DNA from: Candidatus Nanoarchaeia archaeon
Lineage (GTDB): Archaea > Nanobdellota > Nanobdellia > UBA10117
DNA: 64,000 nucleotides
NCBI GenBank assembly: GCA_049969975.1
Contig: JBMFNW010000001.1
Location: 232 to 64,231, forward strand
Direction: 5' to 3'
Shown in pieces: positions 4,592 through 51,841 of this stretch (its first letter is position 1; each line of letters begins with the position of its first letter). A program made the translations under genes and the position numbers. The notes under the pieces are model-generated. The model made no database searches and was not told the origin of the DNA. It saw only the letters and a program-made list of their open reading frames with translations.

Positions 4592-4615
4592 AAGAAAGTA
4601 AAAGGAGGTGAGAAA

Positions 4616-13973: not shown

Positions 13974-16293
13974 ATGCTTGTTTAGACCTTGCGATGCCCG
14001 TATAAGTTCTGAAGGCATTGTGCTTTTAGGTTTAACAACAGAAGGCAAACGAATTGCCATTTTAGATAAACATTATTTGCCGTGGCTTTTAATAGAAGAG
14101 CAGTTTAAGGATGATTTTTTTAAAAAATGTCAGCAAACAAACATAGCACCAGAACATATTCAAGTTGAAGGAAAATATGTAAAGTGCTATTTTAAACCAA
14201 GGGCTTTTTTAAAAGCAGCACAAATTTGCAAAAACGCTGGCTTAAAAGCTTATAATTTTGACATTTCTTTAAGGCGAAGATATTTTGTTGAAGGCCCTGT
14301 TAAATATTTTGCAATAAATAAAGTTTCTGGGACTCCATGGCTCCAAAACACTTTCAAAACAGATATATCTGTAATTTCTGATGAACTTGTTTCTTTGGAA
14401 AGTTATGCCAAACCAAAAATTCTTGCTTTCGACATCGAAACTGCTTCATCTGGAATAGTGCCAAATCCAAAAAAAGATCCAATAATTTCTATTTCTTTAT
14501 ATTCAGATACAACAAAATTGGTTTTAATGTGGAAGCCATTTCCAAAAGCACCTTCCTTTGTTCAATTTTGTAACAGCGAAGCAGAGCTATTAAAGAAATT
14601 TTTTGATTTCGTAAACGAAGCAAATCCAGATCTACTCGTTGGCTATGGCACAGATAACTTCGATTTGGCATATTTGCGCACGCGCGCAAAAAAATATGGT
14701 ATGAGTTTTGATTTTGGTTGGGCTCCAAGCAAAAAAGAAAGAGATTTTGTTGGCTTGCAGTATGCAGACATTTCACGATTTATACGCAGTATTTTAGACT
14801 TAGATGTTAATAGATATGGACTTGATTTGGTTGCCAAAGTTCTTTTAGGTAGCGATAAAGGTAAATTAGCAAATCTTAATCCGGCAAAAATCAATGAGAT
14901 TTGGTCCGTCGGACTTGCAGAAGAATTATGTCTTTTGGCTGAATATAATTTACGAGATTCTCAACTAGTTTATGAAATTACAGAAAGCCTTTTGCCAACT
15001 TGTATAGAACTTAGTAGATTAACTAAGCTTTCACTCAAAGAGGTTCTTTATTCAAGCTATAGCTCTTTAGTCGAATGGTACATAATTGCTAATACAAACA
15101 TACCAATACCACCAAAGCCAACTCAAAAAGAAATATTTGAGAGGTCGAAGAAAACTTTTGAAGGAGGATTTGTTGTTGAGCCTAAAACAGGCCTTCATGA
15201 GAATTTATTCTATTTTGATTTTAGAAGTCTATACCCATCAATTATAGCCACACACAATATAAGCCCAGAAACAATAAATTGCTCTTGTTGCGAACCACAA
15301 AAAGCATATAGTGCAGGTGAAGTTTGGTTTTGTGCAAAAAAAAGCGGTTTTCTGCCCGAATTGGTGAAAGATTTAATAGTGCGAAGAAAGAGGATTAATG
15401 AAATTCTTGCCAAAACACCAAAAAGCTCACAAGAGTATCCTGTGCTTTTTGCAAGACAGCATGCACTGAAGTATATTGCAGCAGCAATTTTTGGCTATTT
15501 AGGATTTGCAGGTTCGAGATTTTATTGTTATGACTGTGCTCGGGCGATTACTTATTTAGGCAGAAAAGTCATCGATTTAACTATTGGAGAGGCTACTAAG
15601 TATGGCTACAGCGTTTTGTATGGTGATACGGATGGCTTTTTTGCACAAGGTCAAAAAGATCCAGTTAAGTTTTTACAAATTATAAATTCAGTGTTGCCAA
15701 AACCAATGGAACTTGAGCTTAAAGCAAAATATTTGGCCGGCTTATTTTTTGGTCGGAAAGCAGGCCAAGGTGGAGCAAAAAAGAGATATGTTTTATTAAA
15801 AGAAGATGGCGAGCTTATATTGCGAGGTGTGGAAGCTGTTAGATCTGATTGGTCAAAATTAGCCAAAGAAACTCAAATAGCAATTTTGCGGGCAATTTTA
15901 ATTGACAAAGATGTAAATAGCGCACTTAAGTATTTGCGCAAAGTTATACAAAATCTAAAAGAAAGAAAAGTTAATTTAGACGATTTAGCACTTACAGCAC
16001 ACTTATCCAAAAAACTTTCAGCATATGCAGCACGCACACCCTATGTTGCAGCGGCAGAACTTGCAAGAGCAAAAGGAATTCCTCTACGAGCGAATTCTGT
16101 TATTAAATATATAGTCACAGAAAGTAAAAGTAAAATTAAGGTTAAATTGCTAGAAGATGCTTCGCTTAGCGATTATGATGTCGATTATTATATAAATCAC
16201 CAAGTTATCAAAGCAGTATACAAAATATTTGAAATATTTGGAATAAGTACTGCAGAATTCAGTGGGCAACAAACGCTTGAAGGCTATGGTTGA
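13966..16293 (+). CDS. polB: DNA polymerase, family B
   Basis: Exonuclease motif FDIET, polymerase motif C YGDTDG and KKRY. 775 aa with no intein-length insertion. Start uncertain, because the ORF overlaps the histone gene's end. Confidence 0.9.
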   Translation: MLECLFRPCDARISSEGIVLLGLTTEGKRIAILDKHYLPWLLIEEQFKDDFFKKCQQTNIAPEHIQVEGKYVKCYFKPRAFLKAAQICKNAGLKAYNFDISLRRRYFVEGPVKYFAINKVSGTPWLQNTFKTDISVISDELVSLESYAKPKILAFDIETASSGIVPNPKKDPIISISLYSDTTKLVLMWKPFPKAPSFVQFCNSEAELLKKFFDFVNEANPDLLVGYGTDNFDLAYLRTRAKKYGMSFDFGWAPSKKERDFVGLQYADISRFIRSILDLDVNRYGLDLVAKVLLGSDKGKLANLNPAKINEIWSVGLAEELCLLAEYNLRDSQLVYEITESLLPTCIELSRLTKLSLKEVLYSSYSSLVEWYIIANTNIPIPPKPTQKEIFERSKKTFEGGFVVEPKTGLHENLFYFDFRSLYPSIIATHNISPETINCSCCEPQKAYSAGEVWFCAKKSGFLPELVKDLIVRRKRINEILAKTPKSSQEYPVLFARQHALKYIAAAIFGYLGFAGSRFYCYDCARAITYLGRKVIDLTIGEATKYGYSVLYGDTDGFFAQGQKDPVKFLQIINSVLPKPMELELKAKYLAGLFFGRKAGQGGAKKRYVLLKEDGELILRGVEAVRSDWSKLAKETQIAILRAILIDKDVNSALKYLRKVIQNLKERKVNLDDLALTAHLSKKLSAYAARTPYVAAAELARAKGIPLRANSVIKYIVTESKSKIKVKLLEDASLSDYDVDYYINHQVIKAVYKIFEIFGISTAEFSGQQTLEGYG

Positions 16294-17167
16294 TTGGCAA
16301 GAAGTTGGGCTATTAACAGCAAAAGTGGCAGAATTTATTAAACCGCATATCAAAGAAGGAGCAAGTGCGTTGGAAATTGCACAAGCTATTGAGGAAAAAA
16401 TATTTGCACTTGGTGCAAAGCCCGCCTTTCCTCCCAACATTTCTATTAATTCGATAGCTGCGCACTACACTCCTGTTTGGAAAGATTCGACAAAATTTGT
16501 AGCAGAAGACCTTGTAAAAATAGATTTTGGTTTGCGTAAAGGGCTTTTTTGCTCGGATATGGCTTTTTCTGTTTCTATCGGCAAAAATCAGCAAAATGAA
16601 GCCTTAATCGATGCTGCGAATACAGCTCTTACAAAAGCAATAACTAAGGCAAAATCAGGTATAATGGTTTGTGAAATTGGAAAAGTTATCGAAACTGTTG
16701 CAAAAGAAAGAGGTTTTTCAGTAATACGAAATTTAACTGGGCATGGTCTGCAAGAAGGCAGCCTTCATGCAGAGCCAACGATACCAAATTTTGATAATGG
16801 GGATAAGACAAAACTTTGCGAAGGTCAAATCATTGCTATTGAGCCTTTTTTAACGACTGGAAAAGGTTTTGTTTCAGAAACAGAGCAATATGAAATTTTT
16901 AGTTTTATAAAAGAAAAACCTATTCGACAAAAAGAAATTCTATCTTTTGTTAAAGCAGAGTATGGGCCTTTCCCATTTGCAAGACGCTGGCTAATAGATA
17001 AATTTGGGCTATTAAAAACAAACATTTTTATCAAAGAAGCTTTGGCTTTAAATGTTATTAAACCTTACAAAGTGTTAAAAGAAGTTAGTGGAGCAAAAGT
17101 AGCTCAAGCAGAACATACAATAAGAATAAATAAAAACAAAACAGAAATTCTTACGAGCCTGCTTTAG
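16262..17167 (+). CDS. map: Methionine aminopeptidase (type 2, archaeal/eukaryotic-like)
   Basis: 301 aa with a pita-bread fold pattern and metal-ligand context (FCSDMAFSV; TGHGLQEGSLHAEP; IAIEPF). Confidence 0.8.
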   Translation: MGNKRLKAMVDWQEVGLLTAKVAEFIKPHIKEGASALEIAQAIEEKIFALGAKPAFPPNISINSIAAHYTPVWKDSTKFVAEDLVKIDFGLRKGLFCSDMAFSVSIGKNQQNEALIDAANTALTKAITKAKSGIMVCEIGKVIETVAKERGFSVIRNLTGHGLQEGSLHAEPTIPNFDNGDKTKLCEGQIIAIEPFLTTGKGFVSETEQYEIFSFIKEKPIRQKEILSFVKAEYGPFPFARRWLIDKFGLLKTNIFIKEALALNVIKPYKVLKEVSGAKVAQAEHTIRINKNKTEILTSLL

Positions 17168-17366
17168 TTTTTAGTATTCGTCTTCTTCTCCTTCTTCTTC
17201 ATCAGGCTCTTCTTCATCAGGCTCTTCTTCATATTCTTCTTCAGGAAACTCTTCTTCTTCATCGAAATCTGGTACCATGGTGTCAAAAAGAGTATTTCTG
17301 GGCTTTTTAAATTTTTCTTTTTTGAATTTCAAAACACTTTTAAAACAGGATAAAAATCTTTTAAAT

Positions 17367-17437
17367 GCGGGGATGGCAGAGCAGCTATGCGCTCGCCTGC
17401 AGAGCGAGATAGGAGGGTGCGACTCCCTCTCCCCGCT
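17367..17437 (+). tRNA. tRNA-Cys (GCA)
   Basis: Acceptor GCGGGGA/TCCCCGC. Anticodon stem CTCGC/GCGAG with loop CTGCAGA. T-stem GAGGG/CCCTC with an atypical T-loop TGCGACT (G at position 55). Short D-arm, no encoded CCA. Lies 26 nt upstream of cysS. Confidence 0.6.
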
Positions 17438-17463
17438 TTAACAGAATTAAACTGACTAGGTGA

Positions 17464-18864
17464 ATGTTGATGGTGAATGTTTATAATACTTTGAGTCGGG
17501 CTAAAGAGCCGCTTGTTGCAATAAATAAAGAGCTTAAACTTTTTGTTTGCGGTCCAACCGTTTATGATTTTGCACATATCGGACATGCTCGCTCATATAC
17601 CGTATATGATGTAATTGTTAAGTATTTAAGATATAAAGGTTTCAAAGTAAAATACATTCAAAATATAACAGACATTGATGATAAAATAATTAATAGAGCA
17701 AAAGAGCTTGGAAAAGAGCCAGCAGATTTAGCAAAACAATTTGAACAAGCCTATTATGAAGATATGGCTTCATTAGGTATAAATTCTGTTGATGCTTATC
17801 TGCCAGCATCAAAACATATTCCCGAAATAATATCTCAAATACAGAGGTTGCTTGAGAAAGGATATGCGTATGTTGCGCCCGATGGAGTTTGGTTTGATGT
17901 ACAAAAATTCAAAGATTATGGTAAACTTTCAAAACAAAATATAGAGGAGTTAAAAAAGCACAGAATTGAGCCGTCTCAATATAAGAAATTTTTTGCAGAT
18001 TTTAGTCTTTGGAAAGCACAAAAACCTGGCGAGCCTGCATGGGATTCGCCGTGGGGAAAAGGAAGACCTGGCTGGCACATAGAAGATACAGCAATTGCAG
18101 AGAAATACTTTGGTCCACAATATGACATGCATGGGGGCGGACAAGATCTTATTTTTCCGCACCATGAAGCTGAAATTGCCCAAATGGAAGCGCTCTCTGG
18201 CAAATCTCCAATGGTTAGGTATTGGCTTCATAATGGTTTTTTGCTAGTAAATGGTGAAAAAATGTCTAAATCTTTGGGCAATTTTGTAACCATAAGAGAT
18301 GCTCTCAAAGAATGGTCTGCAGAAGTTCTTAGGCTATTTTTCTTAAGCACACATTACAGAGCACCAATAAATTACTCAAAAGAAGCTTTACTTAATGCAA
18401 AAAGAAATTATGCCAAATTGCAAGCTTTTGTTCACCGTTTAAACAGCTATCGTACTGAAGCTGTAGAAGTAAAAGAGCAAGCAGATGTTTGGATTAAAGA
18501 TTTTACCGAACATTTTGAAGCTGCAATGGATGACGATTTTAATACTCCACTCGCACTTTCCACACTCCACGCTTTTATGACAAAAGTTAATGCTGCGCTA
18601 GATAAAAAAAGTCTTGATAAGAAAAGTGTTACTAAAATTAAGAGAGTTTTAGGAAAAATAGATAGTATTTTTGGTTTGGGCTTGAAAAAGCTGAAATTGC
18701 CAAAACTTGCAAAGGCCGATTTAGAATTAATAAAGAAAAGAGAGCTTGCAAGAGCACAAAAAGATTGGAAAACCGCAGATGAAATAAGAGCACAACTTAA
18801 ATCTAAAGGCATTATTTTAGAAGACACAGAATTTGGCGTGCTTTGGCGAATTGAAAAGATGTAG
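17464..18864 (+). CDS. cysS: Cysteinyl-tRNA synthetase
   Basis: HIGH motif (FAHIGHARSY), KMSKS (KMSKSLGN) and a Zn-binding Cys context. 466 aa. Confidence 0.9.
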   Translation: MLMVNVYNTLSRAKEPLVAINKELKLFVCGPTVYDFAHIGHARSYTVYDVIVKYLRYKGFKVKYIQNITDIDDKIINRAKELGKEPADLAKQFEQAYYEDMASLGINSVDAYLPASKHIPEIISQIQRLLEKGYAYVAPDGVWFDVQKFKDYGKLSKQNIEELKKHRIEPSQYKKFFADFSLWKAQKPGEPAWDSPWGKGRPGWHIEDTAIAEKYFGPQYDMHGGGQDLIFPHHEAEIAQMEALSGKSPMVRYWLHNGFLLVNGEKMSKSLGNFVTIRDALKEWSAEVLRLFFLSTHYRAPINYSKEALLNAKRNYAKLQAFVHRLNSYRTEAVEVKEQADVWIKDFTEHFEAAMDDDFNTPLALSTLHAFMTKVNAALDKKSLDKKSVTKIKRVLGKIDSIFGLGLKKLKLPKLAKADLELIKKRELARAQKDWKTADEIRAQLKSKGIILEDTEFGVLWRIEKM

Positions 18865-18898
18865 AAAAATATATAAGTTTTAAAAAAAGTTTGAAAAT

Positions 18899-19057
18899 AT
18901 GACTGGGCCACATTCTGGAAAAGCTGGAACTTGCGTTTATTGCGGTGCGCCAGCAACAGATCAATGCCAATTTTGTGGTGCACTGGTTTGCAGAGCTCAC
19001 TTTCATCCTGCAACAGGTGCTTGTACAGCTTGTTTAACTGGAAAAAAAGCAACATAA
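18899..19057 (+). CDS. Small zinc-ribbon protein (52 aa)
   Basis: MTGPHSGKAGTCVYCGAPATDQCQFCGALVCRAHFHPATGACTACLTGKKAT has CxxC...CxxC...C..C. It is below the ORF-track length cutoff and was found by manual translation. Confidence 0.4.
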   Translation: MTGPHSGKAGTCVYCGAPATDQCQFCGALVCRAHFHPATGACTACLTGKKAT

Positions 19058-19095
19058 ATATGTTGCAACAATAGACAATTAATAGCAAGCTGGAA

Positions 19096-20457
19096 TTAGC
19101 CCGTTGGTTTTGTTATGTTAAGATCTTTAACTAATACATGCGGGCACCATGTCGGCTTGCTAACTTCCCAACTCAATATTTGTTTTTGGTCGTTTGCAAT
19201 TGCCGCAATGTTTTTTAGCAAATTTTGCATATTGTCCGAAAGCCTTATTCCTTTAATAGGTTTTAAATGTCCTCTTTCTACTAAAAAGGCAGCATCACGC
19301 GGTATTGTAGAAAAGTCGCCCGTTGCATAATTTTGAAATCTCGTATACCAAAGATTTGTTATGTAAATTCCTTTTTTAATATCTTTTAAAAGAGCATTTG
19401 GCTCTTGGCTGCCAGCTTCCAGAATTATGTTTGTTGGCTCTGGGGCAAAAAGACCTGCATTTGCAGTTGTTTTAGTTTTGTATTTCCTAGCATAAGAGGT
19501 GTTGTAAAGGAAAGTTTTTAGCACACCTTTTTCAATTACTGCAGTTCTTTGTGTTGGCACGCCTTCATCGTCGTATGGGCAAGAGCCAAGGCCGCCAGGC
19601 AGCCTGCCATCATCGTAAATGTTTACAAATTCTGGAGCTATTTTTTGCCCAATTTTATCACTAAACCAAGAAGTGCCTGCTTCAACCGAAAAAATCGATG
19701 TTGCTTGGCCAATACACTCTAGTAACACAGCAAAAGCAAGCGGACTAAATAAAACATCATATTTTCCAGGCACAGCATCACTTGGATTGGCCATAGCTTT
19801 TGCAAACTCTCCAGCTTGTTGACCAGCAGCACTTAGATTGAATTTTTTGAGGCTACACTCCGCAAGCGTTGCATGCCCAGATGAACTTTTGTCTAAAAGT
19901 GCTCTAATTGAGAAATATGCTGCTGTTCCTTTTGTCGAAGTCTTGACATTGCCAGAAGTTAAGAGTACATTTTCTGTCTCTTCAAATTCTAAAATTCCAC
20001 TTGCTCGTTTTGCACCACTTTTAAGTGCAGCATCTATTCCTAAATCTGCAAGCTCAAGAATTTCTTTTTCAGTTATGTTCGAAATTTTTTTATCCCATCT
20101 TTCTGGAATTTCTGAATATTTAAAAGGACCTTCCGCAATTCCAAAATAGTCTGTTTTTGGCTCAAGATGTTGCGCAAAAGTTTCAATGTTTGCAACACAC
20201 GCCGAAATGCTTTTCTCATCGGTAGAATTCAAAGTTGTTGTAAATAATTTTTTGTTAATGTTTACAAAAATATCTATGCTTTCAGATTCGCCTTCTGATA
20301 ATTTTATATTTGCATTGTTTACAAACTTTAACTCATGTTTTTTTCCTCTATTATACATTAGAACTATATCTTGTGCACCCTTTGCACGTAACTTTTGTTC
20401 GATTTTGTCTAAAATGTTTAAAATTTCAGTTTTTTTAATTTCATTTTGCATGCTCAT
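19096..20457 (-). CDS. pmbA: PmbA/TldE-family peptidase partner
   Basis: TldD/PmbA fold signature (GSCPYDDEGVPTQRT). The likely start MSMQNEIKK at 20457 overlaps the upstream tldD stop as ATGA. The track ORF is extended to 20535. Confidence 0.75.
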   Translation of the reverse strand: MSMQNEIKKTEILNILDKIEQKLRAKGAQDIVLMYNRGKKHELKFVNNANIKLSEGESESIDIFVNINKKLFTTTLNSTDEKSISACVANIETFAQHLEPKTDYFGIAEGPFKYSEIPERWDKKISNITEKEILELADLGIDAALKSGAKRASGILEFEETENVLLTSGNVKTSTKGTAAYFSIRALLDKSSSGHATLAECSLKKFNLSAAGQQAGEFAKAMANPSDAVPGKYDVLFSPLAFAVLLECIGQATSIFSVEAGTSWFSDKIGQKIAPEFVNIYDDGRLPGGLGSCPYDDEGVPTQRTAVIEKGVLKTFLYNTSYARKYKTKTTANAGLFAPEPTNIILEAGSQEPNALLKDIKKGIYITNLWYTRFQNYATGDFSTIPRDAAFLVERGHLKPIKGIRLSDNMQNLLKNIAAIANDQKQILSWEVSKPTWCPHVLVKDLNITKPTG

Positions 20458-23186: not shown

Positions 23187-23712
23187 GTGTGTTTTTTGCA
23201 AAATTGCAAATGGTGAAATTCCGACGAGAATGATTTATAGCAGCAAAGACCTCTTAGCTTTTCTAGACATAAAACCTGCAAATCTTGGTCATGTGCTTGT
23301 TATTCCAAGGCAGCACTATACTTATTTGCCCCAAATACCGCAAGAGCTTAATGCAAGCCTTTTAGAACTAATAAAAGTTCTAATTAGTGCAGAAGTTGAG
23401 GCTTTGGGAGCAGAAGGAGTAAATGTGCTTCAAAATAATGGCTCAGCAGCTGGCCAAATAGTTCCACACGTTCATTTTCACATAATTCCAAGATTTAAAG
23501 ATGATAAAGTAGTTTTGGACTGGCAGCCGCTACAGTTCAAAGAAGAGCAATTCGAAGAGGTGCAAAAAAAGCTTATTGAAGGTGCAAAGGCTGCATTTGC
23601 AAAAACACAAATTCAAACATCTGAGCAAAGACCAGAAGAAGTAAAGACAGAAGTAGAAAAACGAGAAGAGACAAAAGGAAAAATAATTAAACTAAAACCA
23701 AAACATGCTTAG
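23179..23712 (+). CDS. HIT-family nucleotide hydrolase with K/E-rich C-terminal tail
   Basis: HVHFHIIPR histidine-triad motif. Start MPECVFCKIANGE at 23179, preceded by GGAGGG. Confidence 0.8.
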   Translation: MPECVFCKIANGEIPTRMIYSSKDLLAFLDIKPANLGHVLVIPRQHYTYLPQIPQELNASLLELIKVLISAEVEALGAEGVNVLQNNGSAAGQIVPHVHFHIIPRFKDDKVVLDWQPLQFKEEQFEEVQKKLIEGAKAAFAKTQIQTSEQRPEEVKTEVEKREETKGKIIKLKPKHA

Positions 23713-25027: not shown

Positions 25028-26038
25028 TTAGCTTTCGTCTTTAATACCTTCAGCTGTTAGCATAAATACTACTTCGCCTTCTGGTAAATGCGGGCTATCG
25101 ATTAAACGAGCAATTCTTTTTTCTCCTTTTGCTTTTCTTAAATAAATTCGATACGTTGAGCCGTGGCCCACAATATTGCCTCCTATCGCTTGTGTTGGGT
25201 TGCCAAAAAAGATTGCAGGATTTGCCATGACTTGATTTGTGACAAACACAGCCAAATTATGCGTATCAGCAAGTTTTTGCAGCGTGTGTATGTGACGATT
25301 TAGCCTCTGCTGCCTGTCTGCCAAATTTCCTCTACCCGCATATTCAGAACGGAATAATGCTGTGAGCGAATCTACAACAATTAATCTAATGTTTAAATTT
25401 TCTTTCCTAATTGCTTCATCAATTTTTTCAGCAAGAAGCATTTGATGGTCTGAACTATATGCTCGCGCCACTTTTATGTTTTGTAAAGTCTTAATTGGGT
25501 CTAGATTTTGTGCAAGTGCAAGCTGCCTTATTCTTTCAGGTCTAAATGTTCCCTCAGTATCAATAAATGCTACTTGGCCTTCTAAACCTCCTCGTTCTTT
25601 AGGAAGTTGAACGTTTACCGAAAGTTGAAATGCTAGTTGTGTTTTTGAACTTCCAAACTCTCCAAATGCTTCGGTAATTGCTCTAGTTTCTATGCCGCCA
25701 CCCAAAAGACCGTCAAGCACTTTACTTCCAGTTGTAATTCTTTCTGTTTTTTCACGCTCTTTTAAAACTTCATCGCCTGTTTTGAAACCTATTTTAATAG
25801 CTGAGCGAGCAATTTGAATGGCTTTTAAAGCAGTTTCTTTTGAAAGTTCTGCAGCCTCTGCTAATAGCTGTGGCGATGCTACTGCTAGCGACACAAGATC
25901 TGTTATTCCTGCAGCATAAAGCTTTTCTGCAGTTGCTTTGCTTATGCCCGGCAAATCTTCTATTTTTTTAATTTCGCTTTCTTCAACAATTTCATTTTTT
26001 TCATCATTTTCATCAGTTTTTTTCACCATTTTACTCAT
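25028..26038 (-). CDS. radA: DNA repair and recombination protein RadA
   Basis: N-terminal HhH ([20 protein letters not shown]), Walker [10 protein letters not shown] and a RecA/Rad51 core. 336 aa. Confidence 0.85.
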
Positions 26039-27095: not shown

Positions 27096-28436
27096 TTAAA
27101 GTGCTAACCCATAAGCTCGAAGCGTTTCTCTTATTGCTGTTGGATCCTCACCACCATGCCAAGACATTTTTGGCCTGACCCGCATTGGAAATATTCTCTC
27201 TAATTTGTCATCTATGAGGACCGCAGTGCCTTTGTCTGGTGGAAGCTCGTCTATGTATTTTTGAATTGCGTATGGCAAATATGTTGCAGCTATTAAATTT
27301 AGAGCTTCTATATCTATTTTTGCGGTTAGTCTATGAGATATTACAATATCTGCTTGGGTCATTACATCTGTATGAATTTTGCCTGGCTGTTGTGTTGCTA
27401 AAACAAGCGAAATTCCTGGCTGCCTGCCTTCTCTTAAGATTTTTATGAGCGGTTCTGAAGCCAAAGTTTGTTTTTCAGTTTCTTTTGGTAAAAATTCGTG
27501 TGCTTCGTCAATGAAAATCCAAACAAGTGGAGCTTTGGCTTCTGTAACTGCTGCTTCTTCGCCAAATATAAAACCGCCTTCGGAAATTAATTTAATTTCT
27601 TCAGCTTTTCTTGCAGCCATTCTTTGCTCAAGTATTTTTTTGCATACCAATCCAATTACAAGCGCTTTAATACGATCTCCACCTTCAAGTTGTGCATACG
27701 CCGAAAGATCTAAAATTGTCGTCGTACCGCCCCTAAATAGTTCTGTAATTGGTGTACCTTCTTTCTTAAATAAACCCCATCTTTTAGCTGCTTGAAATCT
27801 ATTTTCAACAATATTTTTTTCTTCAGTGCTCGATCTAGAATCTTGTTTAGCACACTCAATAAGTTCATCGATATCAAAATCTTCTCCATATTTTTCTCGA
27901 GCAGCCTCTAATGCGCGATCGATGAGAGTTCCAGGACCAGATATTAAATCAAGGTCAAAAATTTCACACCAACTATCTGCACTTACTTCTGAAGGTTTTA
28001 TTGCAAACGGAAAATCTACAGGCACGCCTTGGCTTTGATAATTTTCATAAAGGCCGAAAGGAACATATACTAAAGGTGAATAGTTTTTCGGTCTTAAACC
28101 CCATTCTCGAAGCAATGCATCATCTCTGTAATTAGGGTATTTCATTGTCCAAAAAATACCCATCGTATCAAAAATTAAGCCCGCAATGTTTGTAGAAATA
28201 TTTGGAGGCAAGTCAACAATACCTTCAGCAATAACTGAAAGCGTGTAGCTTTTACCACTCCCTCGCTTGCCACAAACCAAAATAACGTGCGGATTTGCAA
28301 CATCTAAATAAATTGGATTTGCAAGGCTTACTGTGCTGTCAAAGCTTACATAGTTTTTACCTAAGAAAATTGTACCTGCAAGGCCAAGCTTTTCTAGTTG
28401 TTTTGGTGTCCTGCCAGCAACAATCTCATAAGCCAT
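27096..28436 (-). CDS. HerA/FtsK-superfamily P-loop ATPase (DUF87-like)
   Basis: Walker A VCGKRGSGKS and a late LATQQP block. The likely start MAYEIVAG is at 28436. The track ORF runs on to 28688, across a plus-strand tRNA-Ser, which cannot be real. Confidence 0.55.
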   Translation of the reverse strand: MAYEIVAGRTPKQLEKLGLAGTIFLGKNYVSFDSTVSLANPIYLDVANPHVILVCGKRGSGKSYTLSVIAEGIVDLPPNISTNIAGLIFDTMGIFWTMKYPNYRDDALLREWGLRPKNYSPLVYVPFGLYENYQSQGVPVDFPFAIKPSEVSADSWCEIFDLDLISGPGTLIDRALEAAREKYGEDFDIDELIECAKQDSRSSTEEKNIVENRFQAAKRWGLFKKEGTPITELFRGGTTTILDLSAYAQLEGGDRIKALVIGLVCKKILEQRMAARKAEEIKLISEGGFIFGEEAAVTEAKAPLVWIFIDEAHEFLPKETEKQTLASEPLIKILREGRQPGISLVLATQQPGKIHTDVMTQADIVISHRLTAKIDIEALNLIAATYLPYAIQKYIDELPPDKGTAVLIDDKLERIFPMRVRPKMSWHGGEDPTAIRETLRAYGLAL

Positions 28437-34036: not shown

Positions 34037-34141
34037 TGGGCCGGGGCGGATTCGAACCGCCGACCTGCCGCTGGCTTAGACAGAAGCTTGCGCTTCTGCG
34101 TCATATAAGACGGCCGCTCCACCAGGCTAAGCTACCGGCCC
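34037..34141 (-). tRNA. tRNA-Ile (UAU) with 31-nt canonical intron (intron 34073..34103)
   Basis: Acceptor GGGCCGG/CCGGCCC. T-arm GGCGG-TTCGAAT-CCGCC. Variable loop AGGTC. Anticodon stem GCCGU/GCGGC. Exon loop CUUAUA|..|A. Between positions 37 and 38 lies a 31-nt insert that folds into an hBHBh' motif, with a central 4-bp helix CUUA/UAAG and two 3-nt bulges with splice sites after the 2nd bulge nucleotide, plus an internal 6-7 bp hairpin (AGAAGC...GCUUCU). Confidence 0.6.
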
Positions 34142-39748: not shown

Positions 39749-39781
39749 AACTTTTTAAAACAAATTTGCACAAACTAACAT

Positions 39782-39919
39782 ATGAAGCGCTCATCTCGAA
39801 AGTGGAAAAAGAAAAACAAATCAGGTTATAGAGGACGTTGGAAGTGGTATAGAAAGAAGCTTAAAGAACGAAAAAGACTTAGAAAGTTGAAAAGATTAGG
39901 TATCCTTGGGCAGTCTTAA
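39782..39919 (+). CDS. Small highly basic protein (45 aa), possible ribosomal or RNA-binding micro-protein
   Basis: MKRSSRKWKKKNKSGYRGRWKWYRKKLKERKRLRKLKRLGILGQS. Found manually, below the ORF cutoff. Confidence 0.35.
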   Translation: MKRSSRKWKKKNKSGYRGRWKWYRKKLKERKRLRKLKRLGILGQS

Positions 39920-40254
39920 TTTTAATTTTTAAAATTTTAAATGCAAAATTCTTACAAAACTTTTCTAGCACAAATATTTTTTGTAATGGTGTTTTTATAC
40001 CCAACAAATAAAGGCGTAATCATTAAGAAATTGGAGTCTGAGAAAAGTGTCAAGTAATAGCATCTTTCCCTTTAGATACTTGGAACCTTCCACAGCTTAA
40101 GCTTTGCTCGACTATTCAGCTCATTTAAATCTCAGAACTAGATTTCCCAATTCGCTTACAAAAAGTCAAGTCTTCAACACTTGAATTCTATCTTTATTAT
40201 TAGGAAGAACGTTAGGTAATAGTCTCATTTAAAGAAGTCTCTACTAATAACTTT

Positions 40255-43420: not shown

Positions 43421-43504
43421 GGGCCGGTAGATCAATAGTAGATCGCCGCCCTTGCAATTTCACAAGACAGGCGGAGGCTTCGGGTGCGAATCCCGACCGG
43501 TCCA
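43421..43504 (+). tRNA. tRNA-Ala (UGC) with 12-nt intron (43457..43468) in the 16S-23S spacer
   Basis: Acceptor GGGCCGG/CCGGTCC including the G3:U70 Ala identity pair. Anticodon stem CCGCC/GGCGG. Loop CTTGCA[ATTTCACAAGAC]A, where the intron 3' part CAAG pairs with exon CTTG to give a relaxed BHB. T-loop TGCGAAT (G at position 55). Confidence 0.7.
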
Positions 43505-43575: not shown

Positions 43576-46483
43576 TGGCCTGTTGAAGAGAATAGATGCC
43601 TTTTGGTGGATAGCTTGGCTTGAGAAGCCGAGGAAGGCCGTGGCAAGCTGCGATAAGCACGAGGTAGGCGCATGCAGCCTTTGAACTCGTGATTGCCGAA
43701 TGGGTCTTCCTTCTTTCTTCGGAAAGAGATCCGTAAGGATCGGGAACCCGCTGAATTGAAACATCTTAGTAAGCGGAGGAAAAGAAACCAAATGGGATGC
43801 CGTTAGTAGGGGCGACCGAAAGCGGCAAAGGGCGTACCGAATTCCTTTTGGTAACAAAAGGAAGATGTGGGCTGTCCAACAACCAGTTTAGACTTGCGAA
43901 GTGCTTTGGAAAAAGCCGCCGAAGAGGGTGATAGCCCCGTAGCAACATCTAAGCTGGTTGGGGCAGCAAAGAGTAGCACAAGTTGGGATTCTTGTGCGAA
44001 GATGGGTGTCAACAACATCCAACCCTAAATACTTCTCAAGACCGATAGCGCACTAGTACCGTGAGGGAATGCTGAAAAGCTCCCATGGCAGGGAGTGAAA
44101 AGAGCTTGAAACCAAAAGGCGATAGTACGACGCGGCCCCAAGGGGTTGCGTCATCCGTTTTGAAAAACGGGCCGGCGAGTTTAGCTTTGTGGCGAGCTTA
44201 ACCTGACAAAGGGGAAGCGTAGCGAAAGCAAGAGGCCCGCAGCGTTGAGCGAGGGGCGGCGTGTGCTCGCGCTATAGTCACAAGGCTAAGACCTGAAGCC
44301 TGACGAGCTAAGCCAGGCCATGCTGAAGCTCGGGTAAAACCGAGTGGAGGGCAGAAGAGGTTCTGCACATACGCGTTCTTCTGAGCCTGGTTTAGGAGTG
44401 ATATGCTCATCGAGTCAGGCGCTAGCTGGTTCCCACAGAAACAAGCCAAAGTTTGGCCTCGACAGAGCCGTCGCAAGGGGTAGAGTACAGATTGCGGAAG
44501 CAGGGGCTTCGGCTTCGTTCCGCTGTCTAACTCCGAATCCTTGCGAGGCGTAGAAGTCGGGAGTAAGTAGGCGCGGTTAAGCTGCGCAGGCGAAAGGGAA
44601 ACAACCCCGCGAATGGTTAAGGCCCTAAAGAGCTAGCTGAGTGCAAAGAAGGATTCTTCTGTCGTAGACAGCTGGGACGTAGGCTTAGAAGCAGCCATCG
44701 TCTAAGCAACGCGTAACAGCGGACCAGTTGAGACAGAAGGGTCTGAAAATGGACGGGGCTAAGCTAGCCGCCGATACCATTCTCTCCCAAAAGGGAAGAG
44801 GTATGTGGGCGCAGCCATAGAGCAGAAGCATGCTCGTGAGAGTGTGTGGATCTATGGCTGATGTGAATGCCGGTGTAAGTAGAAGCTAAGTATGGTGAAA
44901 AACCATACCAGCGAAAGGGCCAGGTTTTCTCGGCACTGCTCGTCAACCGAGAGTTAGCCGGTCCTAAGTTTGGTGCCTAAGCGTGCCAAACGAAAGGGAA
45001 GTCCGTTAATATTCGGACGCTATCAAGCCACATGCGGCGACGCAAGGTTGCTTGCCGACGCTTTGGGATAGGCTAAGGCGTACCGTCGTGCGCTTTAAGC
45101 ACCGAAGTCTGGGGAATTCTGTAATGGATAGAACCAGATGAAAGTGCGAATAGCACTCGCAAGAGTGTTTAGCTGATTCCTGGAGCCGGTGAAAAGGCAA
45201 GCAATCGTGGCTTGATAACCGTACTCAGAACCGACACAGGTGACCCTGGCCGAGTAAGCCGAGCTGTGACGGGTTGACCCCTCCCAAGGGAACTCGGCAA
45301 ATTAGCCGCGTATCTTCGGTAGAAGCGGTCTCTGCGGCATTGCTGTGAAATATCGGTGGTGCTGCAGGGTGCAATGACAAGGGGGATCCGACTGTTTAAC
45401 AAAAACGTAGCTAAGCGCAAAGTCTAAACGGCTTTGTACGCTTGGTGATTCCTGCCCAGTACGGTTGCCTGAAACTCCGGTCCAACGGAGCTAAGGGCCC
45501 GTAAACGGCGGAGGTAACTCTGACCTTCTTAAGGTAGCGAAATGCCTTGTCACTTAATTGGTGACGTGCATGAAGGGCTAACGAGATCCCCACTGTCCCT
45601 GGGAGGAACCCGACGAATTTTCTCTTCTGGCGAACAGGCCAGAGACCTCCAGCGGGAAATGAAGACCCCGTAGACCTTTACTGCAGCCTGTTGCTGCGGT
45701 TTGTTTGGCGCTGCATAGAGTAGCTGGGACCCGTTTGCAGTTGCTTCTTTCGGGAAGCAATGAGGGGAAAGTGTAACACCAGCCTTCTCTAAGCAGATCG
45801 CTTACCCTTATGGGGACACCTTCAGGTGGGCAGTTTTGCTGGGGCGGCAACCTTCCGAAAAGATATCGGAAGGATCTAATGATCGGCTCACCAGGCTTGG
45901 AAACCCTGGGTAGAGGAAAAGGCTAAAAGCCGGTCTGACTCGGTCCTAAACAGCGAGGGTCCGAGACGCGAAAGCGAGGCCTAGCGAACATAGGTGTCAC
46001 TTTTGTTGAGCGCCCTATCTGATAGAAAAGGTACCTCGGGGATAACTGAGTCGTGCCGAGCAAGAGTACACATCGACCTCGGCGCTTGCTTCTTCGCTGT
46101 CGGCTTTGCCTAGCTTGGCTGTGTACAAGCAGCCAAGAGTGCAGGTGTTCACTGATTAAAAGGCATCATGAGCTGGGTTCACAACGTCGTGAGACAGTTG
46201 GTGTACAATCTGCTGGAGGTGCATAGGGTCTGAGGAGAAGGCAGTTTAAGTACGAAAGGAACAAACTGTCCGCGCCTCTGGTGTACGGGCTATCTGATAA
46301 GGTAGGCCCGGCAGCTACGCGCGTCGGGATAAGCTCTGAAGGCATCTAAGAGCGAAGCCCGCCCCAAAAAGAGACCCTAGGAGCTACCCTAGATGAGGGT
46401 GTTGATAGGACTGGGGTGTACGAGCCAAGGTAACGAGGCTTTCAGCCCGCAGTTACTAATCGCTCCGCTTCTCTAAACAGGCC
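43576..46483 (+). rRNA. rrl: 23S rRNA
   Basis: 5' region GGTGGATAGCTTGGC...GAAGGCCGTGGCAAGCTGCGATAAGC. The 3' region ends ...AGTTACTAATCGCTCCGCTTCTCTAAACAGGCC, which pairs with the 5' GGCCTGTTGAAGAGAA (helix 1). Boundaries about +/-15 nt. Confidence 0.85.
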
Positions 46484-49032: not shown

Positions 49033-49494
49033 ATGGGAGTAATACTTGGTGATCAAATAACAAAAATAGTGGCTGAAAACAAAGGCGTAACGAAAAAGAT
49101 GACTATTGCAAATAACATTGTTATTAAAGATGTTAAAAAACAAGAGTTTGTTCTCGAAGGCGAACGTAAACCTGTGTTAGCCATAGAATTTAGTTTTGGC
49201 AGTACTTATGGCGAATCTGGTAGTAAGATAGAGTTGGATGGCAAAATTTTCTATTCATCTGATAAAAAGGAGTTGGAAAATTTAGAAAAGGCTTGGCGAG
49301 AAAGAAAAACTTTACAAAATGAAGCAGTTGAGCTTGCAATAAGAAACAGAGCCCTTGAAGTTGGTTTGCTTCAAGCAGTAGCACTAGCAAATCAACTTCA
49401 TTTACCGGCGCCAATACAACTCCCGCGGTTTGTGCCTGCGGGCAAACAAGAAGCCAAACAAAAAGAAACAGAAGAAACTGAGAAATCCAACTAA
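49033..49494 (+). CDS. Hypothetical protein
   Basis: 153 aa, no recognisable motif. Sits in an AT-rich islet. Confidence 0.4.
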   Translation: MGVILGDQITKIVAENKGVTKKMTIANNIVIKDVKKQEFVLEGERKPVLAIEFSFGSTYGESGSKIELDGKIFYSSDKKELENLEKAWRERKTLQNEAVELAIRNRALEVGLLQAVALANQLHLPAPIQLPRFVPAGKQEAKQKETEETEKSN

Positions 49495-49516: not shown

Positions 49517-50122
49517 TTAATAACCTATTTTTTTAACAAATTCTTCAAAATTAATTACTTTCATTTTTGGCAAATTTTCAACTTGACCAAATTTTGTAGC
49601 AATTTTTATAATATTTTTAAAAGTATCATCTGTTTCGTCAAAGATTTTTGGTTTTGGCATAAGGCCGGAAAGAATTAGCCATTTTGCAATTTCTTTGTAA
49701 TTTTTAGCAGTTATGAGTTGTTTGAGCGAATATTCTCCTAAAAAGCCATCATTAATTTTTAAAAACACATTTTTATTATTTTGAAATAATTTTTTGTTTT
49801 TAAGATCTACTATTAGTTTACCTTTAACAAATCTAAAATCTTTTTGTTTAAAATTCAATTTTTTTAAGTATTGCTTAATTAGCTCTTCAACAACTTTTTC
49901 TTTTGTATCGCATCGCTCGATTATATCTGCAATTACTGCATTAAAATCATTAAAGTTTATTGTAGAATTGATGTTTAATTTTATTAATTTGCCTAAAAAC
50001 TTGATTGTTTTTTGTTTAATTTTTTTACCATCTCTATAATTTTCAACTTCATAAACATAATTATATTTGCGCGTTTTTGACCCGTGCTTTTTTTGTATGG
50101 TTTTTACTCTTAAGAAAGCCAT
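49517..50122 (-). CDS. Hypothetical protein (ORFan)
   Basis: 201 aa, K/N-rich, in a very AT-rich stretch. No family recognised. Confidence 0.4.
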   Translation of the reverse strand: MAFLRVKTIQKKHGSKTRKYNYVYEVENYRDGKKIKQKTIKFLGKLIKLNINSTINFNDFNAVIADIIERCDTKEKVVEELIKQYLKKLNFKQKDFRFVKGKLIVDLKNKKLFQNNKNVFLKINDGFLGEYSLKQLITAKNYKEIAKWLILSGLMPKPKIFDETDDTFKNIIKIATKFGQVENLPKMKVINFEEFVKKIGY

Positions 50123-50181: not shown

Positions 50182-50409
50182 TTATTTAGCCACAATTGCA
50201 GTGGCAGAAAGGCTCACTTCTGGCATCTTTCTTATTTTGTCGAGCATGAACTCGTTTAGTGCTTGTGTATTTGGTATTTCTACTTGTGCTATTACGTCCC
50301 AAGAACCAAATAAGAGATTTACTTGTCTCACTTCTTTCATTTTTTTGAGTTTTTGGTATACTTTTTCCTCTGTATTTGGCTTGACACCCAGCAAAATGTA
50401 TGCTTGCAT
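50182..50409 (-). CDS. Stand-alone RAM-domain protein (Lrp/AsnC ligand-binding domain)
   Basis: 75 aa with the beta-alpha-beta-beta-alpha-beta pattern (YILLGVKPNTEEKVYQKLKKMKEVRQVNLLFGSWDVIAQVE). Confidence 0.65.
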   Translation of the reverse strand: MQAYILLGVKPNTEEKVYQKLKKMKEVRQVNLLFGSWDVIAQVEIPNTQALNEFMLDKIRKMPEVSLSATAIVAK

Positions 50410-50760
50410 GGTTTCACCTCATTAAACTATTGTTTTTTTCAGAATATAAATTTTGCTATTCACTCTCACTTTTGTTTTTTGGCTTATTGAAAATATTCAA
50501 TCGCTTTTGGTTTTTGTTTTTAATCTATTTAGAAAACTCTCACTTTTTGATTTTTTGCAATATTTTGTGTTTTAGTTTTAGTTTCTTTTAGATTTTTTAA
50601 AGTTTTTAAAAAAATTTTTAACAAAGTTTTTTGCAAATTTTAACAAAAAATAATCTCTCACTTTTTGATCTTTTTTTAAAGATTTTTTAGATAGTTTCTA
50701 ATTTTTTTCTAAATTATTTCTAAAAAAACGAAATCTTTATATATTCTGAAGTGTTTAATT

Positions 50761-50810
50761 GTGTTTAACAGTTAAACACGTTTAAACAAAATGTTTAACA
50801 CGTTTAAACA
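50761..50810. promoter_or_regulatory. Cluster of nested palindromes (GTGTTTAAC-A-GTTAAACAC; GTTTAAAC x2) immediately upstream of the regulator gene start
   Basis: A perfect 9-bp inverted repeat lies at 50761..50779, with further GTTTAAAC palindromes at 50781..50788 and 50803..50810. A TATA-like TTTATATATT lies at 50736..50745. Confidence 0.5.
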
Positions 50811-50815
50811 CAAAA

Positions 50816-51355
50816 ATGGGTTTGTTTGATAGCTTGAAACGTATTCTTAAAAAGCAGCCAGCAGAGCCCCAACGACAAAAACCGGAGGTCAAACGTGCAA
50901 GGGTAGTTGTTAAACAGATCAAAAAAAGAAAAAAGCAGAAACTACCAGAGCACCAAATCTTGCGTGAGTGGCGGCAAGAACTTAAGCGCCTACAAGAACA
51001 CCCACTCACGCAAGCAAAAATAATCAATGAGCAGCTACTTGCCACTATTATGGATCTTTTAAACGAGATAAATGCAAAACTTGATGAGTTGAGTAGAAGG
51101 CTCGAAAAACTTGAATTGCAAAAAGTGAAAGAATCCAAAGCGACACAAGCGACACCAACAATCAAATTAAACAGTAGCGAGCAAAGCGTATTGGATTTTG
51201 TAAAAAAAGCAAAGGAGGCGCGAGCACAAGAAGTTGCAGAATCTTTAGGTATTTCGAGATCGAATGCAGCATTAAAATTAAATAAGTTGTTTTCTATGGG
51301 CTTCTTAGATAAAAGACAAGATGGAAAAGATGTTTTTTATTTTCTGAAAGGGTAA
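50816..51355 (+). CDS. Coiled-coil protein with C-terminal winged-HTH (MarR/ArsR/TrmB-like) domain
   Basis: The C-terminus SEQSVLDFVKKAKEARAQEVAESLGISRSNAALKLNKLFSMGFLDKRQDGKDVFYFL is a wHTH. The N-terminal 110 aa is K/E/Q-rich coiled coil. Confidence 0.6.
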   Translation: MGLFDSLKRILKKQPAEPQRQKPEVKRARVVVKQIKKRKKQKLPEHQILREWRQELKRLQEHPLTQAKIINEQLLATIMDLLNEINAKLDELSRRLEKLELQKVKESKATQATPTIKLNSSEQSVLDFVKKAKEARAQEVAESLGISRSNAALKLNKLFSMGFLDKRQDGKDVFYFLKG

Positions 51356-51491: not shown

Positions 51492-51623
51492 GATGGATTT
51501 CGAGAGAAAGTTATTTGACGCAGTTTGTTCCCAGTGTGGAAAACCTTGTAAAGTACCTTTCGAACCAAAAGAAGGTAGACCAGTTTATTGCCAAGACTGC
51601 TGGAAAGCGCGTCAAAGAACTAA
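51492..51623 (+). CDS. Small zinc-ribbon protein (43 aa)
   Basis: MDFERKLFDAVCSQCGKPCKVPFEPKEGRPVYCQDCLESASKN has two CxxC pairs. Manual call below the ORF cutoff. Confidence 0.4.
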
Positions 51624-51841
51624 AAGATAAAACAAAAACTGTTAACAAAAACTGTTTAATTTTTTGATTACTTTTTGATTATTTTTTGTTAGATCAAATA
51701 ATTTAATCTTTAATTAAATAATTCGATCTTTTATTAGAAAAGTTGCGTATAATATATGTTATATGAAATTGTGAACTTCGGGCGTAAAAAATAAAATATA
51801 AAAAGGTCGAAATCTATAACTAAATAAAGGGAGGTTAAAAG

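Follow-up and report, generated by a model that had tools for sequence, protein, structure and literature searches.

A winged-helix protein gene of DPANN archaea with an operator-like palindrome array and a one-sided polar box array next to a dif-like site

INTRODUCTION

Sites of the dif type are made of imperfect 11-bp inverted repeats that lie 6 bp apart and contain TAA-N6-TTA (PMC2958812, PMC11840125). How XerA is restricted to chromosome dimers in archaea, which lack FtsK, has been an open question since archaeal Xer/dif was first described (PMC2958812). The organization of the archaeal dif region has been partly addressed in Thermococcus kodakarensis, in which a winged-helix nucleoid protein, TrmBL2, occupies dif-flanking DNA, stalls Smc-ScpAB, and thereby makes a domain boundary (PMC11840125). 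Here, we describe a locus from a Candidatus Nanoarchaeia archaeon (contig JBMFNW010000001.1, assembly GCA_049969975.1), studied within a stretch of 64,000 nucleotides (positions 232 to 64,231, forward strand) that is referred to as the window and whose own numbering is used throughout. The locus comprises a gene for a winged helix-turn-helix (wHTH) protein, a long spacer upstream of it that contains two kinds of repeated motif, and a dif-like site downstream.

A first-pass annotation of the spacer and gene had drawn attention to the repeats. That observation is real and more interesting than proposed, for different reasons. The key context, namely, dif and XerA, lies outside the stretch it covered. 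Because the repeats are conserved group-wide and adjacent to dif, the locus resembles a chromosome-maintenance module, so far undescribed, more than an ordinary gene switch. The reading we favor, with a confidence just short of even, is that an unnamed DPANN DNA-binding protein linked to dif has both its own operator and a directional array of sites flanking dif, which would stall or orient machines tracking along the chromosome.

RESULTS

Two repeated motifs in an unusually long spacer

Gaps between genes in this genome are mostly 20 to 60 nucleotides (nt), compared to 406 nt for the spacer separating a RAM-domain gene (50182-50409, minus strand) from the wHTH gene (50816-51355, plus strand), in agreement with the location and the approximate 400-nt size first reported. 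The spacer is unusually long in all close relatives (338 to 571 nt), and that of the window is very AT-rich, with long A/T runs. For comparison, 87 loci were collected from genomes and metagenomes and reduced to 38 DPANN lineages (individual loci are designated by L numbers); some early counts, i.e., the strand and density tally of the polar box described below, cover the first 22 loci only.

The 11-mer CTCTCACTTTT is present in exactly three copies in the window (50463, 50537, and 50655), all on the plus strand and all inside the spacer. Shuffled sequences are expected to contain 0.05 copies per window, and none of 100 shuffles reached three. The copies thus stand where the first-pass annotation had placed them, although the TTGA ending ascribed to the motif is found only in copies 2 and 3, which extend to CTCTCACTTTTTGA; copy 1 reads CTCTCACTTTTGTT and ends in GTT. 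The second motif, GTTWAAC, occurs 13 times in the window against 12 expected, i.e., at chance level, so that its palindromes are significant only through their local clustering and their conservation across genomes. The comparison of frequencies suggested earlier therefore gives a split outcome. By window-wide frequency alone, the palindromes would count as refuted, and it is their clustering and conservation that speak for them; CTCTCACTTTT is far above its expectation. Chance and low complexity were rejected, for the 11-mer by the shuffles and for both motifs by their enrichment across genomes. According to the best reading, the spacer contains two separate DNA elements, an operator and a polar array.

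A one-sided, co-oriented array of polar boxes

The copies of the first motif in the window, scored with a position weight matrix (PWM) whose maximum is 20.9, are as follows.

50463 to 50473, plus strand: polar box 1 (CTCTCACTTTT), 13 nt past the predicted RAM TATA box, PWM score 18.4
50537 to 50547, plus strand: polar box 2 (AAACTCTCACTTTTTGA), PWM score 20.8, with a second box, CAATATTT, at +18
50655 to 50665, plus strand: polar box 3 (AATCTCTCACTTTTTGA), 159 nt before the ATG, PWM score 19.2

The box has an 8-bp core, CTCACTTT, and an extended consensus, AACTCTCACTTTT. Wherever a lineage has at least 470 nt of upstream DNA, the core recurs ahead of the wHTH gene, mostly in 3 to 8 copies; L018 and L068 are exceptional in having one strict CTCACTTT copy each. 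The array is one-sided, strictly co-oriented, and spread over 0.3 to 3 kb. In the tally of the first 22 loci, 81 plus-strand copies of CTCACTTT lie between -1300 and -100 and no minus-strand copy lies between -3000 and 0, for a density of about 4.3 per kb in the array zone versus 0.02 to 0.09 per kb in distant flanks. Boxes are spaced by a median of 161 nt (mode, 104 to 118 nt), and the DNA between them is not conserved. Weak helical phasing signals appear at periods of 10.3 to 11 bp and were not trusted, since related loci are not independent.

In distant lineages, boxes are found antisense inside the pyruvate:ferredoxin oxidoreductase alpha gene and thymidylate kinase genes, and also on the sense strand inside surface-protein-like genes. 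These coding-embedded boxes fall in all three reading frames and on either strand of unrelated genes, which rules out protein repeats as their source, and their orientation tracks the wHTH gene, not the gene that they overlap locally. Because they are embedded in unrelated genes and oriented by the wHTH gene, we read them as a DNA-level element; judged from these sequence patterns, it is kept by selection whatever DNA lies upstream. Their interpretation as operators of a promoter was not supported, given that CTCTCAC boxes reach up to 3 kb upstream, keep no fixed distance to the promoter (the box nearest to the wHTH gene lies anywhere from -120 to -400), and occur inside unrelated genes.

A second small box, the nearly palindromic CMATATRG, comes at about +19 from the polar box in 26/62 intergenic units, compared to 2/62 in a control window; coding-embedded arrays show no such enrichment (7/66 versus 6/66). 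Examples are CAATATGG and CCATATAG; in the window, the second box lies at 50557-50564. It sometimes occurs twice per unit and was seen in intergenic arrays of closer clades (L029, L031, L006-L009, L037, and L040).

A purely transcriptional explanation has to be weighed here, according to which the boxes would be enhancer-like activator or repressor sites, or weak promoters, that tune the wHTH gene and its neighbors and have no part in chromosome mechanics. The array is always upstream of the wHTH gene and co-oriented with it, and in L012 and L013, the last box directly precedes the transcription factor B recognition element and TATA box (BRE/TATA) of the gene. The enrichment of a TATA-like second box in intergenic units and the persistence of the array in lineages with no detectable dif nearby also fit this explanation. 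However, known archaeal regulators act next to the BRE/TATA, and a layout with a variable distance to the nearest box and up to eight boxes over 3 kb, some inside unrelated genes, is unlike theirs; nor does the second box accompany coding-embedded arrays above the control level. We regard a purely transcriptional role as unlikely, though less so than the other alternatives.

We also considered small RNAs, for instance, tandem units each ending in ...CUCUCACUUUU, as well as an RNA leader structure formed by the palindromes. The boxes do end in a T run that resembles an archaeal terminator and is often followed by a TATA-like box, and the spacer is unusually long in all close relatives. On the other hand, no credible Rfam match was obtained at gathering and E-value thresholds, fold energies are ordinary (z of -1.12 and, for the leader, -0.38), sequences between boxes are not conserved, boxes lie inside or antisense to protein-coding genes, and natural variation of the palindromes breaks RNA pairing (see below). 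An RNA-based explanation is hence barely credible.

A dif-like site downstream of the wHTH gene

A candidate recombination site is located past the 3' end of the wHTH gene.

51742 to 51769, no strand assigned: dif-like site GTTGCGTATAA-TATATG-TTATATGAAAT, in 11-6-11 arrangement, arms complementary at 8/11 positions

The site lies 387 nt after the wHTH stop codon, in the 51631-51841 spacer and outside the stretch covered by the first-pass annotation. It has two imperfect 11-bp inverted repeats, a 6-bp separation, and the TAA-N6-TTA core. Counted by hand, it is identical to Escherichia coli dif at 22/28 positions (sequence from PMC3025954) and to the validated T. kodakarensis dif at 19/28 (sequence from PMC11840125). 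Sites were searched for as 11-6-11 inverted repeats and then with a PWM, scores of >20 being called. In the 64 kb of the window, this is the sole site with a score of >20, the next best reaching 2.6, and next-best scores in any locus are at most 16. A dif-like site lies 215 to 2023 nt past the wHTH stop codon in 17 lineages, the window included, of about 29 with enough downstream sequence. It forms the sole conserved island of its spacer, with 27/28 positions identical between the window and L029 (a 74%-identity relative) and the remainder unalignable. Synteny with L029 runs from the rRNA operon to the dif-like site and breaks exactly there. In L029, about 8.2 kb of extra DNA follows dif (10916-19100, compared to 51770-51841 in the window) before collinearity resumes at a rubrerythrin gene; the far end of this extra DNA showed no further dif-like site. 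In the window and L029, dif may be a hot spot of insertion or deletion. The palindrome array upstream of the wHTH gene was considered as dif itself and dismissed, its arm and spacer geometry misfitting 11-6-11 and a separate, proper dif-like site being present.

In many Woesearchaeota-type loci, the gene next to and convergent with the wHTH gene encodes a tyrosine recombinase of 268 to 272 residues that passes the NCBIfam XerA equivalog cutoff (about 245 bits versus 220). Such XerA equivalog genes adjoin the orthologous dif-like site in relatives, and xerA is present within 7 kb in about 18 lineages. In the most divergent clade (L070, L083, L024, and L076), a dif-like half-site, AGTTCGCWTAA, is visible upstream of xerA, where it runs into the 5' end of the neighboring gene; the flanks of these four loci yielded no full 11-6-11 site.

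The polarity of the boxes was then expressed relative to dif. In the -4/-3, -3/-2, and -2/-1 kb bins, there are 7, 22, and 41 copies, respectively, all reading towards dif, which amounts to 70/70 on the dif-directed strand, the opposite strand being empty. Beyond dif, there is no array, with only four minus-strand copies and one plus-strand copy within 2 kb (17 lineages, up to 10 kb on each side), and a mirrored, KOPS-like distribution, tested over the same lineages and distances, was not found. The few boxes beyond dif (L015 at 6769, L017 at 6761, L055 at dif +18, and L007/L034 at dif +461) also point back to dif, since they are on the opposite strand. The L014-type clade has one far-side box 18 to 45 nt from dif. 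As the reverse complement of the polar box matches some outer dif arms at 6/10 positions, it was also considered as a XerA half-site; this was rejected because the box is invariant and the dif arms vary by clade (AGTTCG, AGTGCG, ATTGCG, or GTTGCG).

Two bacterial precedents suggest what such polarity might serve. The FtsK-orienting polar sequences (KOPS) are read by a winged-helix domain, and the boxes could similarly load or orient a translocase that moves to dif and activates XerA, in place of FtsK-KOPS, in these FtsK-less archaea. The core is indeed an 8-bp polar motif pointing to dif, the far-side copies lie mostly on the opposite strand (4 minus versus 1 plus), including the one close to dif in L014-type loci, and the direction of XerA in archaea is an open question (PMC2958812). 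However, the array is local and one-sided rather than genome-wide and mirrored, no translocase is linked to the locus, and the far-side orientation bias rests on four or five sites, some of them from related genomes. We consider a KOPS-like role improbable.

The same grade applies to a replication fork barrier in which the boxes would be Ter-like and the wHTH protein would be the terminator, as in Tus-Ter or RTP-Ter, fixing termination beside dif. The sites are polar and repeated in a single orientation near dif, and the gene adjoins its own sites and appears autoregulated, as is the case for tus-TerB and rtp. RTP, moreover, is a winged-helix dimer with a coiled coil, and in the close clade, an rRNA operon located 4 to 9 kb to the left of the locus is transcribed towards dif. 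Arguing against such a barrier, no opposed set of sites was found within 10 kb on the other side of dif, GC skew does not switch at the locus, and the wHTH protein has no sequence or family similarity to Tus or RTP. A barrier that shields the rRNA operon from head-on forks was rejected separately, as distant array-bearing loci have no rRNA within 5 kb.

Palindromes covering the predicted start of the wHTH gene

The second motif is concentrated immediately before the wHTH gene, next to its predicted promoter.

50731 to 50744, plus strand: predicted BRE/TATA of the wHTH gene (AAATCTTTATATAT), called from invariant alignment columns
50751 to 50811, no strand assigned: operator-like array of six GTTWAAC/GTTTAAAC sites, starting at 50753, 50763, 50771, 50780, 50793, and 50802

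As first annotated, a perfect palindrome, GTGTTTAAC-A-GTTAAACAC, occupies 50761-50779 and GTTTAAAC occurs twice, at 50780 and 50802. A GTTTAAT at 50753 and a GTTTAAC at 50793 bring the number of GTTWAAC-type sites to six within 57 nt, spaced by 8 to 13 nt. In the BRE/TATA alignment of nine close relatives, columns A16-18 and T23, A24, T25, A26, and A28 are invariant; the TATA box (50736-50744 in the window) is invariant in all nine, and the first GTTWAAC site begins 6 to 9 nt downstream of it. Such sites occupy the gap between TATA and ATG in every lineage with upstream sequence. Over the 38 lineages, the 150 nt before the ATG contain 125 sites in 5.3 kb (23.5 per kb), compared to 0.07 to 0.3 per kb elsewhere, an enrichment of about 100-fold. 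The sites read GTTWAAC or GTGTTWAACAC across lineages, some of which have six tandem GTGTTAAACAC copies before the ATG, and both the motif and the recognition helix of the protein remain unchanged in relatives with as little as 35% protein identity. Pairs of GTTWAAC sites also lie just past the 3' end of the wHTH gene in L018 (at about 5378), L025/L026 (at about +526 from the ATG), and L068 (at +585), so that the gene is bracketed by these sites in those loci.

Among relatives, half-sites flip between GTTTAAC and GTTAAAC, and L003 has a direct repeat, GTTAAAC-A-GTTAAAC. These flips keep the DNA site and break RNA pairing; taken with the unremarkable fold of the leader, they favor a DNA site over an RNA hairpin. 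Since archaeal TATA boxes are centered about 26 nt upstream of the transcription start, the start of the wHTH gene is predicted at about 50766, within the perfect palindrome. In characterized archaeal repressors, sites at such a position block polymerase recruitment. The GTTWAAC sites are thus most likely the autoregulatory operator of the wHTH gene, and the simplest reading would have the gene's own product bind the palindromes. Quite probably, this protein forms dimers by way of its long helix and, once bound to the palindromes, represses its own gene. The earlier proposal of an autoregulatory operator set is therefore supported for the GTTTAAC palindromes, which follow the TATA box, lie over the predicted start, and are kept in all orthologs, and does not extend to the CTCTCAC boxes. 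Taken on its own, the operator is an ordinary kind of element, that of an autoregulated archaeal wHTH repressor whose family is unnamed.

An unnamed DPANN family of wHTH/coiled-coil proteins

The gene itself is described by a single entry.

50816 to 51355, plus strand: wHTH gene encoding a 179-residue protein of an unnamed DPANN family

The protein consists of an N-terminal amphipathic, basic helix, an invariant HPLTQAK segment, a long helix (residues 63 to 109), and a C-terminal winged helix (residues 120 to 177). In the alignment of the family, the N-terminal helix reads MGLFDxLKRxxKK or MVIKKxLRKLLRRK, a near-invariant segment, W-x11-HPLTQAKIIN, precedes a coiled-coil-like stretch, and the C-terminal wHTH contains a near-invariant ISRSNAxLKLNKL. 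AlphaFold2 predicts helices at residues 47 to 60 and 63 to 109 and a confident wHTH at residues 120 to 177 (mean pLDDT, 75.7). The N-terminal helix of the family (MGLFDSLKRILKK in the window protein, residues 1 to 15, window 50816-50860) may be likened to the membrane-targeting helices of bacterial division and nucleoid-occlusion proteins.

An NCBI entry identical to the window protein exists for a Candidatus Nanoarchaeia archaeon metagenome-assembled genome, although an exact-sequence query gave no hit. Clustering at 90% left 47 relatives, whose taxon names, where given, all belong to DPANN (Nanoarchaeia, Woesearchaeota, Nanoarchaeota, or "DPANN group"); when 1.84 billion representatives were searched exhaustively with a profile, only about 55 full-length members emerged. 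No curated Pfam or NCBIfam family threshold is passed by the 179-residue protein. It scores 25.3 bits against TrmB (PF01978; cutoff, 25.6), a family precomputed for several members, and stays below the cutoffs for MarR (22.5 versus 24.6), MarR_2 (20.2 versus 27), and ArsR/SmtB NF033788 (31.2 versus 55). Pfam and NCBIfam matches are of the TrmB, MarR, IclR, and ArsR types only, with none to HTH_AsnC or HTH_24. Structure and sequence searches match the wHTH domain only, to ArsR/SmtB, MecI, MarR, the archaeal centromere protein AspA, and CapS (9z72; E = 1e-6), and gave no match to the N-terminal two-thirds of the protein. PHROGs and PADLOC likewise returned weak matches confined to the wHTH domain. 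These weak matches, the absence of any relative among the viral contigs of IMG/VR, and the chromosomal synteny of the left flank led us to reject a mobile, defense, or viral origin.

The appearance of AspA among the best structural matches bears on another explanation, in which the locus would be a replication origin or a plasmid-like iteron or centromere, and the protein would be a winged-helix initiator or centromere-binding protein. Direct repeats, AT-rich DNA with long A/T runs, and an inverted-repeat operator recall iteron origins, parC/ParR, and AspA centromeres. Against this, none of the 42 window open reading frames (ORFs) scanned encodes Orc1/Cdc6, Rep, or ParA; the boxes are all direct, 85 to 250 bp apart, and not tightly phased, with no inverted ORB pairs; and in distant lineages, boxes lie in coding DNA with no AT-rich unwinding element. 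The module is also chromosomal, syntenic, and absent from viral contigs. An origin or centromere is accordingly among the least probable explanations that we weighed.

The RAM gene and other neighbors

The genes and signals next to the module are the following.

50182 to 50409, minus strand: stand-alone RAM (Lrp/AsnC ligand-binding) domain gene, 75 residues (PF01037, 54.8 bits)
50443 to 50450, minus strand: predicted TATA box for the RAM gene (minus-strand sequence TTTATATT), read from the sequence
51493 to 51630, plus strand: 45-residue CxxC-x17-CxxC zinc-ribbon gene (PF23477/TIGR04272), between the wHTH gene and dif

In L001 and L003, the predicted RAM TATA box is conserved as GAATATAAATTTT, and the ribosome-binding site of the RAM gene, GAGGTGA, lies at 50414-50420. 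The RAM gene adjoins the wHTH gene in seven closely related loci only, and no RAM homolog was found within about 5 kb in all more distant loci (flanks of L009-L026). It is probably a clade-specific neighbor outside the conserved module.

This distribution bears directly on the model of the first-pass annotation, in which all repeats of the spacer would be operators of the wHTH protein in a divergent promoter and the free RAM domain would be its small-molecule-sensing partner, as in a split Lrp system. The palindromes do resemble an operator, and polar box 1 has the same position beside the RAM TATA box (13 nt from it) in the window, L001, and L003, so that it could affect RAM transcription in the close clade. 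However, the co-conservation of the two genes that the split Lrp idea needs, and that had been suggested as a check, is confined to the close clade and does not extend to distant loci. Furthermore, the wHTH domain is of the TrmB/MarR/ArsR type, not Lrp/AsnC, and the polar boxes reach kilobases upstream, into coding genes. As a whole, this model is very unlikely.

The zinc-ribbon gene is kept in L001, L003, and L007, the latter with two copies, and not in distant lineages. To the left of the RAM gene, 49517-50122 encodes a 201-residue lysine-rich protein that matches no library family and is syntenic in the close clade only (30 to 47% identity). Next to it, 49033-49494 encodes a 153-residue protein with no match in Pfam, NCBIfam, PHROGs, PADLOC, or PDB. 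The 153-residue protein recurs near the locus in distant genomes; its gene lies upstream in L010 and L011, while in L014-L017, L021, and L026, it is found on the other strand, about 4 kb downstream.

Other features of the window

An Rfam scan located an archaeal rRNA operon and RNase P RNA in the window. Two tRNA matches were obtained with Rfam only, none with ARAGORN: one at 34037-34141 (105 nt, probably intron containing) and one at 43421-43504, in the 16S-23S spacer. The 23S rRNA gene of L031 (about 2270-5320) has several insertions of about 600 to 700 nt relative to window 45350-46190, which are likely rRNA introns. Two further noncoding gaps of about 505 nt (23187-23691 and 39749-40254) are long for such a compact genome. 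A HerA/FtsK-like ATPase gene (27096-28436) lies near radA (25028-26038), and the window also contains genes for topoisomerase VI subunits A and B, PolB, topoisomerase I, and Cdc48.

DISCUSSION

Both arrays of this locus are conserved and keep a fixed position and polarity, the presence of polar boxes does not depend on coding context, and the wHTH gene is linked to dif and xerA. From these patterns, we infer who binds the polar boxes and what the resulting complex does, as follows. The wHTH protein, as a dimer held by its long helix, would bind the six GTTWAAC sites through its invariant recognition helix, and this would shut off its own promoter, since the sites cover the transcription start. 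The AACTCTCACTTTT boxes would constitute a second class of protein-binding site, acting at the DNA level, all pointing to the gene and dif from 0.1 to 3 kb upstream. Because two invariant protein segments parallel two invariant DNA motifs, the same protein may also occupy these boxes, either via its second invariant segment or as single winged-helix units. Together, the polar and operator arrays would give rise, on a single side of dif, to a directional protein-DNA structure, which could stall or orient a structural maintenance of chromosomes (SMC) loop extruder, a replication fork, or a translocase and set dif at a defined boundary. This specific role for the polar array, i.e., a directional array bound by the same protein and acting on tracking machines, is in our estimation possible rather than probable.

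Several observations weigh against the favored reading. No clear sequence is common to the polar box and the operator half-site, so that a single protein would need two reading heads. The polar array is 1 to 4 kb from dif, with genes between, and is tied more tightly to the wHTH gene than to dif; L032 and L009 keep the array and have no detectable dif within 5 to 10 kb. A symmetric barrier or trap would call for a mirrored array beyond dif, and there is none; no GC-skew switch is seen at 51.7 kb, and xerA was not found in the 64-kb window. TrmBL2, the closest precedent, is not sequence specific, binds to either side of dif, and has its gene elsewhere.

In a more specific and more doubtful version, the locus would be a distinct DPANN dif-control module, in which a wHTH/coiled-coil protein, possibly membrane tethered, and the one-sided polar AACTCTCACTTTT boxes direct dimer-resolution events. 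It might act on SMC, forks, or a translocase, which it would orient or stall, or else serve as long-range accessory DNA for XerA. If true, such a module would supply an FtsK-KOPS-like function that is otherwise unexplained in archaea.

With regard to the dif region of archaea, the locus offers a compact candidate: one protein of 18 to 20 kDa, an 11-bp palindrome, a 13-nt polar box, and a recognizable dif, often with xerA adjacent. Its parts are conserved across Nanoarchaeia, Woesearchaeota, and Pacearchaeota and provide, in practice, a marker for locating dif in DPANN genomes. The array also illustrates that a strictly polar motif can be selectively kept inside unrelated coding genes. Should the polar boxes be ordinary regulatory sites, the finding would be a smaller one, and there would still be an unnamed, DPANN-wide family of autoregulated wHTH proteins with a well-defined operator.

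For the combination of a dedicated dif-linked gene with a strictly polar, one-sided array that persists in coding genes, we could find no counterpart in the family libraries and literature searched. One or two points of likeness connect the locus to each of TrmBL2/dif, KOPS, Ter, and the cer accessory sequences, and it lacks a defining feature of each. The TrmBL2/dif system is likewise archaeal and has a TrmB-type winged helix at the flanks of dif (the protein described here scores 25.3 bits against the TrmB cutoff of 25.6); its activity is carried by the flanking DNA and not by dif itself (PMC11840125), and the role proposed for the present locus would also be to stop SMC traffic at the dimer-resolution site. 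However, TrmBL2 is an abundant nucleoid protein with a loose AT-rich preference, encoded elsewhere and acting on both sides of dif, whereas the protein described here is small, dedicated, and encoded in cis, next to two sharp motifs of which one is polar and one-sided. In the TrmB family, moreover, the order is wHTH, coiled coil, and C-terminal effector; here, it is reversed, with the helix (residues 63 to 109) before the wHTH (residues 120 to 177) and no C-terminal domain.

The FtsK-KOPS system shares with this locus an 8-bp nonpalindromic motif oriented to dif, and the KOPS reader is a winged-helix domain, but KOPS are distributed genome-wide with a strand switch at dif, whereas the boxes are local (0.3 to 3 kb) and one-sided, with no FtsK linked. 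Tus-Ter of E. coli and RTP-Ter of Bacillus subtilis have polar sites in the dif or terminus region and an adjacent autoregulated gene for the binder, and RTP, a winged-helix dimer held by a coiled coil, can be likened to the wHTH/coiled-coil protein. Ter sites are nonetheless few, tens of kilobases apart, and arranged in two opposed groups, compared to 3 to 8 sites within 3 kb in a single orientation here, and there is no homology. The accessory sequences of cer and psi, bound by ArgR, PepA, and ArcA, also place protein-bound DNA on one side of a Xer core, and such DNA could impose directionality on recombination without FtsK. There, the accessory DNA abuts the core over about 180 bp; here, the arrays are 0.9 to 4 kb away, with genes between.

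Centromere and iteron systems (parC-ParR, AspA of pNOB8, and iteron Rep) likewise combine direct repeats with a palindromic operator before the gene of a small DNA-binding protein. Their repeats have a period of 10 to 43 bp, are intergenic, and belong to mobile replicons with ParA or Rep partners, unlike the chromosomal boxes described here, which are spaced by 85 to 250 bp, include copies in coding DNA, and have no partner ATPase. With respect to the Lrp/AsnC (FFRP) family and its stand-alone RAM proteins, the neighboring gene encodes a clear RAM domain, while the wHTH protein lacks both a RAM domain and an HTH of the Lrp type. The operator finds its closest likeness in autoregulated archaeal wHTH repressors (TrmB/TrmBL1, MarR-type, Lrs14, and Phr), which have palindromes just past their own TATA box, as here. 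For palindromes at that position, blocking of polymerase recruitment is an established mechanism of repression. The protein described here differs from these repressors in that it reaches the threshold of no named family, contains a second invariant segment besides a long coiled coil in its N-terminal part, and is preceded by at least six sites at about one helical turn rather than one or two.

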